64,000 nucleotides of DNA from a virus (IMGVR_UViG_3300035208_002115); one strand, 5' to 3'. Counted from the first letter of the stretch, positions 10,813 to 45,730 are shown. Numbers and translations: made by a program. Notes: generated by a model not told the origin, from the sequence alone.

Positions 10813-11160
10813 ATGTTTCATACACCACCTAATAATTTACCCCTATCTCTGCGTGTAGCTGCCCAAACAATTGAATTGGATTATATACAAATTACACCAA
10901 CAACCGTTAAACAAAAATTATACTGGTTTATTATATTCAGACCAATAATATATAAAAAAGAACACAATTTAGTTATTGATTTTACACCATCGCAACATTT
11001 TGAAGAATTCTCAGTTAATAAAACCTCGGATATATTAAACAAAAAAATAAGATTAGCATTACAAAAAAATAAGAACGCTGTTTTTTATGTATATTTAATA
11101 TTTGATATTCAACATTATCCATTTTTTTCCATTATAAAAATGGATTACCAAATTAAATAA
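10813..11160 (+). CDS. hypothetical protein
   Basis: 115 aa ORF. Confidence 0.6.
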   Translation: MFHTPPNNLPLSLRVAAQTIELDYIQITPTTVKQKLYWFIIFRPIIYKKEHNLVIDFTPSQHFEEFSVNKTSDILNKKIRLALQKNKNAVFYVYLIFDIQHYPFFSIIKMDYQIK

Positions 11161-32898: not shown

Positions 32899-33432
32899 AT
32901 GAAAAAATTCACTGAAATAATAAACGAACAATTAACATACGATTATGGGTGTGTTATGATTAATTTCGATATTCCAAATTGGAATGACATAATAAAAGAG
33001 ATTGAAAAAGATGATATTTATGATGAAGATGGGTTTGGTCTCGAAAAAGAATCACATATAACACTACTTTTTGGTTACCCTAAAGAAATAGCTGTAAAAG
33101 ATATAAAAAATATCATCGGTAATTTGGATAGTTTTTATATTGAAATGCAAGAAACGTCATTATTCCAAAATGATAATTATGATGTTCTCAAATTTGATGT
33201 GAATCATGACACACTACATGCATTAAATGACTCATTAAAACAATTACCCAACACTTCCACCTTCCCAGATTATCATCCGCATATGACTATCTCATACATC
33301 AAAAAAGGTAGGGGAATTAAATATATAAAAAAATATGATAATTTGATAGTAGCAAAACCGTTAGAAATTGTGTATAGTTTACCTACTGGAACAAAGGAGA
33401 AAAAACAAGTCACCCTTCTTAAATTTAAATAA
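32899..33432 (+). CDS. 2H phosphoesterase (T4 gp57B/Acb1-like) with CTS-like leader
   Basis: MKKFTEIINE; two HxT motifs, HITLLFG and HPHMTISY. Confidence 0.8.
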   Translation: MKKFTEIINEQLTYDYGCVMINFDIPNWNDIIKEIEKDDIYDEDGFGLEKESHITLLFGYPKEIAVKDIKNIIGNLDSFYIEMQETSLFQNDNYDVLKFDVNHDTLHALNDSLKQLPNTSTFPDYHPHMTISYIKKGRGIKYIKKYDNLIVAKPLEIVYSLPTGTKEKKQVTLLKFK

Positions 33433-33437
33433 AAATA

Positions 33438-33824
33438 ATGTCTTATAAAATAAAAACATATAATCGATATGTAAATGAAGATAATTACATATATCACGGA
33501 ACTGGTAAAGGTCAGGCTTTAAATATTCAACGAGACGGTTTTATGAAACCAAATAATACTGGTGAAGAATTACCATCAATATCATTTACTAATGATTTAG
33601 ATTATGCTAAATATTACGCCAAATCAAAAGGAGGAATAGATAAAATGATAATTTTAAGAACAAAATTAAATAATGATTTTAAACTTTCTCCGAGAATAAG
33701 AAAAAATAAAGGAGATGAATATATTACATTTAATGAAATTCCATCATCTAAATTAGAAATATTGACGGGTTCTGAATGGTGTCTTTTAAATAAATGGAAT
33801 GTGATATTTGATGAACCTTTGTAA
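33438..33824 (+). CDS. CTS-leader protein with ADP-ribosyltransferase-like fold
   Basis: KIKTYNRYVNED; YHGT...I...G...ISFTNDLDYAKYYA...DEY.....IP. Confidence 0.65.
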   Translation: MSYKIKTYNRYVNEDNYIYHGTGKGQALNIQRDGFMKPNNTGEELPSISFTNDLDYAKYYAKSKGGIDKMIILRTKLNNDFKLSPRIRKNKGDEYITFNEIPSSKLEILTGSEWCLLNKWNVIFDEPL

Positions 33825-33848
33825 TGAAATAATTTATACATTTGTGGT

Positions 33849-34016
33849 ATGCCAAATAAGAATAAAATAATAATAACATTTAATCCAGTAGATTCTTCTA
33901 TATATGATTACATGGATAGCTGGAGAAATTATATAAATGATGAAAATAAAAAACGGCTTGAAAAATTAAGAGCTGAAAGAAAAGCTAAAATAAAAGAAAT
34001 TTTTAAAAATATATAA
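33849..34016 (+). CDS. C-tag mini-protein (55 aa, not in ORF track)
   Basis: MPNKNKIIITFNPVD...RAERKAKIKEIFKNI; TACATTTG at 33837-33844. Confidence 0.7.
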   Translation: MPNKNKIIITFNPVDSSIYDYMDSWRNYINDENKKRLEKLRAERKAKIKEIFKNI

Positions 34017-34037
34017 ACCTAAAAGGTTTATGTATTT

Positions 34038-34193
34038 GTGGAAGAAGAATATTTAAAAACATATAATAAAAGAACCAGTAAAATATTTTCTAATTTAAAA
34101 GAATATTATCGTTCAGATGAAAAATCCTTCAAAATAATTATTTTATTAGAACGATATTTAAAGTTAAAAAGTATTTTCAAAAATTTTGATTAA
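34038..34193 (+). CDS. C-tag mini-protein (51 aa, GTG start, not in ORF track)
   Basis: VEEEYLKHII...LLERYLKLKSIFKNFD. Confidence 0.6.
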   Translation: MEEEYLKTYNKRTSKIFSNLKEYYRSDEKSFKIIILLERYLKLKSIFKNFD

Positions 34194-34198
34194 TTTTT

Positions 34199-34363
34199 AT
34201 GCCAGCATTAATAAGACTTTCAGATTTACAATCTGTCCAACCATTATCAAAACCGAGTGGACATTTACATTATATAGATTTTTTTTATGAAACTATATCA
34301 GAAAAAAGGAAGAAGAAATTAAACGAAATATTTCCAGAATTTAAAAATGAAAACAAAAAGTAA
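34199..34363 (+). CDS. major-capsid-fragment mini-protein with C-tag (54 aa, not in ORF track)
   Basis: MPALIRLSDLQSVQPLSKPSGHLHYIDFFYETISEKRKKKLNEIFPEFKNENKK. Confidence 0.7.
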   Translation: MPALIRLSDLQSVQPLSKPSGHLHYIDFFYETISEKRKKKLNEIFPEFKNENKK

Positions 34364-34556
34364 ATCTAAATTACAACAAATAAATAATTCAATTAATACA
34401 ACAGTGTCAATACCAACTGAACATTTTAATGTTACAGTTAGAGCAATTTATCCTTATGATTATCCAGATTTTAATTATTTTAAAAGAAAAGAAAAACGTG
34501 AACAACGATTAAAAAAATTAAGTGGATTATTCCCAGATTTTAAAGAAAATGTTTAG
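34347..34556 (+). CDS. C-tag mini-protein
   Basis: KREQRLKKLSGLFPDF. Confidence 0.7.
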   Translation: MKTKSKSKLQQINNSINTTVSIPTEHFNVTVRAIYPYDYPDFNYFKRKEKREQRLKKLSGLFPDFKENV

Positions 34557-34836
34557 TCACGAATTATATAATTCAGTTATATCACAGATTGGGGACACTC
34601 CGATTGACGGAGGTGTATATTTACCACTTGATACTTTTTCAGATGTTGATTTTAATAGTATAATTTTTCCAGTGGCGATGAAAATTGCTGCTCAAACAAT
34701 AGGTCTGAATTTAATATCAGTTCAGCCTATGGAACATGGGGTTGATTATGAAAAAATAAAACGAGAAAGAGTACGTGAACAACGAAAGAAAAAAATAGAA
34801 GAAATATTTCCTGAAATGAAAAAACATGAAAAGTAA
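34549..34836 (+). CDS. major-capsid-fragment mini-protein with C-tag
   Basis: FPVAMKIAAQTIGLNLISVQPM, then REQRKKKIEEIFPEM; ATG at 34549 preferred. Confidence 0.72.
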   Translation: MFSHELYNSVISQIGDTPIDGGVYLPLDTFSDVDFNSIIFPVAMKIAAQTIGLNLISVQPMEHGVDYEKIKRERVREQRKKKIEEIFPEMKKHEK

Positions 34837-35014
34837 TTTCACTCTTAATATAATACAAAAAGCTATCCGAGATGGATTTACAACTTTAACAATTGATTGT
34901 GAATTAAATTATGACCAACTATGGTTAAAAGTAAAACGGGAAATTATTCAGGAACATAGAAAACAAAAAATAGAAGAACTATTTCCAGATATAAAAAATA
35001 ATAATAAACTATGA
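34826..35014 (+). CDS. C-tag mini-protein
   Basis: QEHRKQKIEELFPDI. Confidence 0.7.
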   Translation: MKSNFTLNIIQKAIRDGFTTLTIDCELNYDQLWLKVKREIIQEHRKQKIEELFPDIKNNNKL

Positions 35015-35289
35015 AAACATTGAGAAAATTAATTATTAAATTCTTCGCTGGTTACTATCAAATCGGTAAAGGAACTATTCCAAGAGCATCAGCCATCATT
35101 TTTCCGTCATTAATGATACCTATAATACTCGAAATAATTTTCGCACCAACCCCAGTGTTGTGGCATTTTATTCCATTTTTCATATTTGTGTTGATAAGTT
35201 TTGGGTATCTACAATTCTATCCAGCTAAACCAGAAGAATTGGATGCAGCTCAGAAAAAACAATATGATGATTTAACAAAAAACAAATAA
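35011..35289 (+). CDS. 2-TM membrane protein
   Basis: Two hydrophobic segments. Confidence 0.65.
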   Translation: MKTLRKLIIKFFAGYYQIGKGTIPRASAIIFPSLMIPIILEIIFAPTPVLWHFIPFFIFVLISFGYLQFYPAKPEELDAAQKKQYDDLTKNK

Positions 35290-45139: not shown

Positions 45140-45730
45140 TTATTTTAATATATCTCCGAAAATTTCTATTATTTTTTCTTTTCTGAGAATTCCTTTCATA
45201 TTCACGAAATCATTTAATGTTAAATAATGTAATATTAAATTTTTATTATTTAATATATTATTATATATTCTCTTAATTTCAATGAATTTTTTATCTTCCT
45301 TTGTTTCTAAAAAAACACATTTAACATTATTATCATATAATGGTTTAATATCATCTGGGAATTTATATTTAGAAGAAAAATTATCGAATATAAATATTGA
45401 TATCCCTAAATTTTTATATCCATATAATATTTCATTATATTTATCTGTTATATAAATGGTATTACCATTATTCCTGATAACATTTTTTCTATAAGTTACC
45501 CAGCCATACCAATCAATATATCTTTTACATAAAATTTCATCACTCTGTCTTCCATCAGGTGTGAGATATACGCCATTGGTTTTATTATCACTACAAAATT
45601 TAAGTATATAATTTATACCACAGGTAGTCATACCAACTTGTCTTGGTGTGAAGAACCAATGATTCCCATTTGTTACAACGTTTATAAAATATTGGTAAAA
45701 ATCTGTATATGATATGTTTATATCGTCCAT
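45140..45730 (-). CDS. degenerate terminase-ATPase-like domain with C-tag
   Basis: FYQ...PRQVGMTT (cf. gp17 YQ and SRQLGKT), IFIFDN (cf. Walker B hhhhDE), ends LRKEKIIEIF. Confidence 0.6.
   Translation of the reverse strand: MDDINISYTDFYQYFINVVTNGNHWFFTPRQVGMTTCGINYILKFCSDNKTNGVYLTPDGRQSDEILCKRYIDWYGWVTYRKNVIRNNGNTIYITDKYNEILYGYKNLGISIFIFDNFSSKYKFPDDIKPLYDNNVKCVFLETKEDKKFIEIKRIYNNILNNKNLILHYLTLNDFVNMKGILRKEKIIEIFGDILK

Follow-up and report, generated by a model that had tools for sequence, protein, structure and literature searches.

An inherited array of small tagged proteins, including two with capsid-derived heads, in a giant phage genome

Results

Six small tagged ORFs lie head to tail

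We analysed a 64,000-nucleotide stretch of virus DNA (hereafter, the window), which corresponds to bases 189370–253369 of a record holding a single virus genome of 675,678 bp with 27% G+C (G000; IMG/VR class, provirus). The standard genetic code reads well in G000, and an alternative code is not needed. At 33849–35014 on the plus strand of the window, six small ORFs of 51–95 aa, named A to F here, follow one another head to tail, and all end in a shared C-terminal helix that we call the tag; the part preceding it is called the head. The original prediction, made from the sequence of the window, had reported six back-to-back ORFs with specific endings and three of them missing from the ORF track; all were found as described, and the omission is explained by length, as three are shorter than 60 aa.

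Our comparison of the array covers the window and two further loci. One is in G001, a relative with a genome of 639,979 bp (about 640 kb; IMG/VR UViG_3300037067_007156; direct terminal repeats, rated complete) whose capsid protein (MCP) is 93–94% identical to that of G000, and the other is L104, a 1.6-kb metagenome contig. Scans of viral contigs with E, an E alignment, and the membrane protein downstream of the array as queries returned G001 alone as an array-bearing relative, and the matches from a single metagenome scan were mostly MCP genes. The features of the locus, in window coordinates, are the following:

32899–33432 (+): 2H phosphoesterase upstream of the array, scoring above threshold in Pfam for 2_5_RNA_ligase2 and also for the anti-CBASS family Acb1
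33438–33824 (+): variable slot 5' of the array, holding a 128-aa gene here and an unrelated 368-aa membrane-type gene in G001
33849–34016 (+): gene A, 55 aa; tag core 33978–34004; 57% identical to its G001 orthologue
34007–34037 (+): hairpin between A and B, with 14-nt arms that are 93% complementary; kept in the relative
34038–34193 (+): gene B, 51 aa, opening with GTG (in the relative, with TTG); tag core 34152–34178
34199–34363 (+): gene C, 54 aa; FP[DE]-type tag from 34307
34223–34294 (+): MCP-derived piece of C, aa 9–32, corresponding to MCP 125–148
34347–34556 (+): gene D, 69 aa, with a 17-nt overlap with the end of C; tag core 34506–34532
34549–34836 (+): gene E, 95 aa from its ATG, the longest frame opening at GTG 34522
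34630–34740 (+): putative mimic of the MCP N-terminal arm (N-arm) in E, aa 28–64, corresponding to MCP 99–135
from about 34747 (+): linker and tag helix of E; tag core 34783–34809
34826–35014 (+): gene F, 62 aa; tag core 34958–34984; ATGA overlap with the next gene
34829–34909 (+): possible RecA-like ATPase piece of F, aa 2–28; hhalign 83.4%, E=8.5e-6
34276–34356, 34475–34555, 34752–34832, 34927–35007 (+): four copies of an 81-nt direct repeat, spanning linker, tag and next start of C, D, E, and F
35011–35289 (+): conserved 92-aa membrane protein, 84% identical in G001, which closes the overlapping gene run

The units are tightly spaced: A is followed by the hairpin and a 21-nt gap to B, B is separated from C by 5 nt, and from there on the genes overlap (C/D by 17 nt, D/E by 8, E/F by 11, and F and the next gene by 4). 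Given these narrow gaps and overlaps, B to F together with the membrane protein look like one packed unit, and they are probably coupled. A near-identical 15-mer (2 mismatches) lies directly 5' of the A and B starts (window 33833–33847 and 34027–34041) and holds a TAnnTTTG-like box, with three such sites in the window against 0.8 expected.

What the adjoining units C to F share is the 81-nt repeat, which a tandem-paralogue test identified as their common homologous module and whose copies are 62–75% identical. This repeat enlarges on the shared core (A/T)TATT(T/C)CC(A/T)GA that had been noted in the last four ORFs: the core is indeed shared, with the next start codon just downstream, but F has C at the first position, and the conserved stretch is longer than claimed, running through linker, tag, and junction. 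Comparison of head against head gave weak matches for C and E (E=0.009) and for D and E (E=8e-4, driven by the linker), and no match for other pairs. Searches of the six proteins against Pfam and PHROGs gave sub-threshold matches alone.

The tag belongs to a genome-wide class and is selected as peptide

All six ORFs carry an RKxK[IL]xx[IL]F helix (in its general form, [RK]xxK[IL]xx[IL]F) within about 15 residues of the C-terminus. B and D deviate at the second position, where B has Y instead of K, and the tags of C to F form a longer FP[DE] subtype with an additional P-[DE]-hydrophobic-K element. The same motif recurs throughout the genome: 80 ORFs of G000 have it at most 15 residues from the C-terminus, whereas 20 shuffles averaged 1.95 such ORFs, with no more than 6 in any of them, and the reversed sequences gave 4; a profile-based count puts the tagged ORFs above 100. 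Tag enrichment is thus far beyond chance. Loci of unrelated AT-rich phages (31 in number) yielded five loose, off-consensus matches in total, compared with 11 in one 20-kb locus of G001, and G000 has at least 14 places at which three or more tagged ORFs follow one another. The motif is nearly always C-terminal: it sits at most 10 residues from the end in 53 of 75 occurrences, and the distance from tag to stop ranges from 0 to 17 residues. Judged from its sequence, the array belongs to a proteome-wide class of proteins built from a variable head and a C-terminal RKxK[IL]xx[IL]F helix.

Within the tags, R, F, P, I, and L stay constant as residues but are encoded by different synonymous codons; between orthologues, pN in the tag is 0.03–0.17 against a pS of 0.30–0.63. 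Both findings show that the tag is selected as a peptide. Head pN is 0.13–0.38, and head dN/dS is 0.3–0.8, values that are also compatible with weak constraint. The most constrained unit is B, with 78% identity and a dN/dS of 0.19. A tag also closes the last unit before the convergent MCP gene, where the neighbouring gene is on the opposite strand.

The heads of E and C correspond to a conserved segment of the capsid protein

The MCP of G000 is a 568-aa protein of the Gp23 family (bases 543309–545015 of G000, minus strand; PF07068 at 3.5e-27). Residues 34–60 of E are 63% identical to MCP residues 105–131. In hhalign comparisons with a profile of 35 MCPs of the clade, a profile of seven E sequences aligned to MCP 99–135 (98.2%, E=3.2e-14) and the C profile to MCP 125–148 (90.3%, E=1.5e-6; P-values for such short profiles are approximate), and C has in addition a weak Pfam match to Gp23. 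When the E profile was applied to the MCPs of five further genomes of the clade, it matched this N-terminal segment alone. We thus regard an origin of the E and C heads as fragments of the virus's own MCP, from its N-terminal arm and first strand, as secure; capsid pieces had been predicted among the heads, and the prediction holds for these two. The claim that the heads are unrelated to one another does not hold for all of them, as C and E are both capsid-derived.

Within the N-terminal half of the clade's MCPs, invariant columns are packed most densely in the copied segment. In an alignment with T4 gp23 (NC_000866), the E core lies opposite residues of about 91–117, and C opposite the strand that follows. 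A complete HK97-type fold, with P and A domains, is absent from E and C, whose matches span MCP 99–148 of 568 residues. The full MCP, searched against the PDB, matches T4 gp23 over its C-terminal part only, and PDB sequence searches with the E profile or the MCP N-terminus gave no match. An AF2 model of E, of modest confidence, has a disordered N-terminus and helices at 39–50 (the mimic core) and 67–91 (linker and tag). The AF2 model of the MCP monomer places a helix and a strand at the corresponding positions, with low confidence, and its residues 63–152 are too poorly modelled for a fold search. Homology between the FP[DE] tag and the MCP strand after the N-arm was also considered and was rejected, as C and the mini-MCPs of distant phages described below hold both elements.

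The copies are old. DNA identity to the MCP gene is 67% (82% in the core), with the differences falling at synonymous or third positions, and E lies as far from that gene as from its own orthologues. We considered whether E and the MCP gene had recently undergone gene conversion and rejected this, as 47 of 63 nt agree with the MCP gene and with the orthologues alike. There is no near-identical DNA, and the capsid copies in E and C were not recently captured. Across the E family, conservation is 42% in the N-terminus, 67% in the MCP-like core, 50% in the linker, and 82% in the tag; by this measure, two islands alone, the mimic core and the tag, are maintained by selection.

Related designs occur beyond the clade. 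Distant phages have mini-MCPs of 130–182 aa that combine propeptide and N-arm with a basic, tag-like helix, either inserted or appended, so that the design of a capsid piece plus a basic helix is older than this clade. In three such phages, an ORF of 72–76 aa lies directly 3' of the mini-MCP gene (L108 695–913, L111 3640–3858, L151 1354–1584); its N-terminus resembles the start of a tail-sheath protein and it has an internal tag-like basic helix, with no Pfam support. In the window itself, an untagged 115-aa ORF at 10813–11160 (+) opens with a copy of the MCP N-arm motif (E=7e-4 with the E head profile; 44% identity to the MCP over residues 109–142). About 5 kb past the window end, G000 encodes a 264-aa protein (258396–259190, +; also present in G001) that is 59% identical to MCP 70–110, immediately N-terminal to the helix of the N-arm; this protein may represent a second head component built on the same N-terminal segment.

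Few other heads resemble larger proteins

Among the remaining heads, that of F aligned, profile against profile, to residues 74–100 of a RecA/KaiC-type ATPase, just after the P-loop (83.4%, E=8.5e-6). Because F also has competing weak matches to the Pfam FF domain, its assignment as a copy of the P-loop helix–strand of the phage's RecA-like ATPase is only probable. Searches of the A, B, and D heads against the genome detected no parent. Searching the heads against other phage proteins, which the original prediction had called for, thus met with partial success, with matches to the MCP for E and C and probably to a RecA-like ATPase for F, and none for A, B, or D.

To judge how general fragment origin is, we compared 146 tagged heads with 361 long ORFs in a profile test with reversed heads as control. 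At P<1e-4 there were 4 matches for real heads and 0 for reversed ones, and at P<1e-3 there were 18 and 7. With this control, only a minority of heads resemble larger proteins, and the idea that tagged heads are in general fragments of core proteins was downgraded; beyond E and C, a few tagged heads probably arose as fragments, and such an origin is not general in the tag class.

Some other tagged mini-proteins have a best Pfam match just under threshold, namely to Gp23 (an 85-aa unit and its orthologue) and to DNA_pol_B (a 77-aa unit). The 85-aa unit, which belongs to a second array described below, matches Pfam Gp23 at 3.9e-5, but it aligns equally well to a DUF2201 peptidase–VWA protein. At the level of motifs, tagged units resemble the prohead protease and polymerase motif B. 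The family-B DNA polymerase of G000 is itself split into halves about 118 kb apart (539510–540991, +, and 659109–660566, −); one part, of 493 aa, stops after motif A, and the other, of 485 aa, contains motifs B and C. The first polymerase half is followed in G001 by a 294-aa gene of endonuclease-like type. A tagged 196-aa protein in the window (45140–45730, −) weakly resembles the N-terminal ATPase region of a 733-aa putative large terminase (BLAST E=0.01, hhalign P=0.0075, no Pfam match), with its Walker-A lysine replaced.

The array is inherited vertically and changes by whole units

In the relatives, A, B, C, E, and F are orthologous and in the same order, and D has an orthologue in one of them (L104); head and tag are inherited together. 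Array proteins are 47–78% identical to their orthologues and the flanking genes 65–84%, and no relative has a broken frame. The E and F families grew by four or five members each through database searches, to seven and nine sequences, respectively. The conserved order of orthologues shows that the six ORFs are real genes. In G001 the order is ASCH gene, 2H phosphoesterase, A', B', C', E', an F-type pair, membrane protein, and an 89-aa gene; in L104 it is C, D, E, F, membrane protein, and the 89-aa gene. Among the window, G001, and L104 we saw no head swap, that is, no new head beside an old tag, and the proposal that heads are exchanged at the tag boundary across relatives accordingly finds no instance here.

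The differences that do exist involve whole units. D is missing in register from G001, with the junction just after the C tag, such that the start codon which opens D in the window opens E' there; we had considered a hybrid C/D tag in G001, and rejected it, as the tag there is simply that of C, and the start codon following it marks the junction. Precisely one unit has thus been deleted or inserted. G001 has two copies of F, fused in one 114-aa frame, and in another relative the second F copy is a free 61-aa gene. A second array of nine tagged ORFs (G000 540998–543260) lies between the N-terminal half of the split polymerase and the capsid gene; in G001 two to three of its units are absent, and the unit before the gap bears a tag most like that of a lost unit, making it a hybrid of head and tag. 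(Between the MCP gene and this second array, G001 has three large inserted genes of zinc-finger/endonuclease-like type, of 391, 530, and 293 aa, L045 5724–9479; G000 has none.)

As units are lost, duplicated, and fused with junctions in the tag repeat, the 81-nt repeat is evidently a true recombination breakpoint for changes in copy number, and such breakpoints would fit unequal crossing-over or slippage between tag repeats. Taken together, the compared loci point to vertical descent of the array, with change through fast divergence of heads and in-register loss, duplication, and fusion of units. The idea of the tag DNA as a recombination anchor is therefore borne out in that units are gained, lost, and joined at the tag, but not in that heads are swapped between relatives; the tag DNA may also have anchored the original capture of the fragments.

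Discussion

A proposed role as mimics or decoys, and its rivals

Our main reading, to which we assign a probability of roughly 55%, is that the array encodes two-part proteins, vertically inherited, each combining a bait head with a common docking helix and acting as mimics or decoys. The head, as a short bait, would mimic a conserved stretch through which a core phage protein binds its partners, and the tag helix would plug into one common partner. E and C would most likely compete for whatever binds the copied capsid segment, with a host sensor (of the Lit/Gol–EF-Tu kind or the MCP-sensing Avs kind) or the capsid assembly machinery as the candidate target, and their bait would be a segment that becomes ordered in the capsid protein only through contacts with partners.

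In T4, the Gol segment of the capsid protein binds domains II–III of EF-Tu, activates the abortive-infection protease Lit, and is read by it, and we take the exact Gol residues (about 93–122) to coincide with the segment copied here. The Gol region of T4 gp23 comprises 29 residues in the first quarter of the protein, is its most conserved part, and is an EF-Tu-binding element (PMC3014915). Host receptors have likewise been reported for the MCP (one of them together with EF-Tu), for DNA polymerase, and for RecA-type ATPases (bioRxiv 10.64898/2026.01.04.697583). Based on the binding of EF-Tu by the T4 segment, on the reported host sensors, and on the Acb1-like 2H phosphoesterase adjoining the array, we favour competitive mimicry in a conflict with the host or with rival phages, and would place a role in capsid assembly next. 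A segment that is buried, or that plays its part in assembly alone, is not necessarily the one a sensor reads; docking, mimicry, and decoy action are roles that we infer. A broader version, in which the clade keeps tagged mimics of the capsid N-arm, of a RecA-type ATPase, and probably of DNA polymerase as decoys or competitive blockers of a host pattern-recognition immunity that senses these very proteins, all gathered on one hub through the helix, strikes us as unlikely in so full a form.

Other explanations can be set against this one. The tag DNA could be an anchor through which pieces of other genes continue to be taken up and made into new tagged proteins, as would fit the junctions of unit indels, of the fusion, and of the hybrid head/tag gene (all in the tag repeat), the heads that are fragments of larger genes, and the at least 14 runs of three or more tagged ORFs. 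Such active capture sits poorly with the lack of any head replacement among the three loci compared, with fragments that are old and have no near-identical DNA, with the many heads (most of them) that have no detectable parent, and with an array that has no recombinase or structured site associated with it, and we consider it unlikely. E and C could instead help in assembly, by co-assembling with or capping the MCP or scaffold through the N-arm with the tag docked on the scaffold, much as small proteins of a prohead core that help to build or time a very large capsid. The invariance of the copied segment would suit this role, as would its low confidence in the monomer model, which is expected if it is ordered only in the assembly, and the distant phages' mini-MCPs with propeptide, N-arm, and basic helix. 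However, the array lies among small non-structural genes beside the 2H phosphoesterase and far from the head genes, E and C have no propeptide, and the tag is borne by about 80–150 proteins of which most are unlike structural proteins; we consider an assembly role quite improbable.

Two further readings would deny the peptides a function of their own, and to both we give very little weight. If the A-rich tag DNA served to start translation of the following gene, or as its promoter, with the peptide a by-product, one would understand why each tag tail contains the next start codon or is closely followed by it, and why the 81-nt repeat includes that codon; yet the synonymous variation of the R, F, P, I, and L codons around fixed residues, a pN far below pS, the variable tag-to-stop distance, and the tags ending genes with an opposite-strand neighbour (as in the last unit before the MCP gene) all speak for the peptide, making a pure nucleic-acid signal highly improbable. 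Nor do the units look like decaying remnants of duplicated genes. Fast head evolution, with dN/dS up to about 0.8, and the small ORFs annotated in T4 as old partial duplicates of alt would be in keeping with debris, but the frames are intact in all relatives, the E and F families number seven and nine sequences, and constraint is concentrated on mimic core and tag. In addition, C precedes E, an order that is not colinear with the MCP, so these two are not remnants of one broken MCP gene; we see scarcely any room for gene debris as the explanation.

Relation to known systems

The nearest precedents of the array are Gol (the same place in the capsid protein), alt.-1/alt.-2 (the same origin), and portable targeting or docking peptides (the same logic). 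The likeness to Gol is one of position, as judged by alignment, with the E core at gp23 residues of about 91–117 and C at the next strand both falling on the conserved N-terminal segment of gp23; unlike E and C, Gol is part of the full capsid protein rather than a separate gene, and has no tag. T4 alt.-1 and alt.-2, annotated in NC_000866, are likewise small ORFs made from a piece of a larger gene, the virion-associated alt, but they adjoin their parent, share no tag, and come with no evidence of selection on a mimic motif. Like the array tag, the capsid targeting sequence of T4 (on its internal proteins and on Alt) is a short, portable peptide, shared by otherwise unrelated proteins that are thereby sent to one destination; it is N-terminal and is removed by the prohead protease, whereas the tag is C-terminal. 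PIP-box and T4-type clamp-binding peptides resemble the tag in their C-terminal position, hydrophobic residues at i, i+3, and i+4, and basic flank. The tag nevertheless departs from the PIP-box pattern Qxx[ILM]xx[FY][FY], with K for Q, no second aromatic residue, and G, D, N, or P after F, and it differs also in being borne by about 80–150 mostly tiny proteins.

At first glance, the array may also seem to resemble a set of integron cassettes, with short ORFs in the same orientation that each end in a shared repeat and units present or absent between relatives. However, the repeat here is coding and direct and is not an attC hairpin: a search after the array ORFs for attC-type inverted repeats found none, with only the direct coding repeat and chance AT-rich inverted repeats present, and a search of the whole 675,678-bp genome for a tyrosine integrase (PF00589) gave no match, with positive controls. 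We rejected an integron on these two grounds. DSAD1, which acts against DSR2, offers a parallel of another kind, as small phage proteins are thought to bind the sensor of a conserved structural protein, and the array adjoins an Acb1-like gene; known adaptors or decoys of the DSAD1 type are, however, not fragments of the sensed protein itself, and a review of phage countermeasures contained no capsid-fragment decoy.

Our literature searches found no description of tagged core-protein fragments. Portable tags and partial gene duplicates are known in phages; the selected copy of a core segment joined to a proteome-wide docking helix is not described in the literature searched. If the heads are indeed mimics, they would represent a new viral way of handling the sensors or partners of a virus's own conserved proteins, with the tag as handle to a hub. 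In addition, the array gives a direct view of the way in which genes of this kind are multiplied and lost, namely as whole units, in register, at the tag repeat, and this movement would explain the more than a dozen tagged runs in these giant genomes. About 3 kb before the window, G000 (184817–186520, +) encodes a 567-aa DUF2201 protein, combining a putative metallopeptidase with a VWA-like domain, that may be a candidate for reading or processing short peptides.
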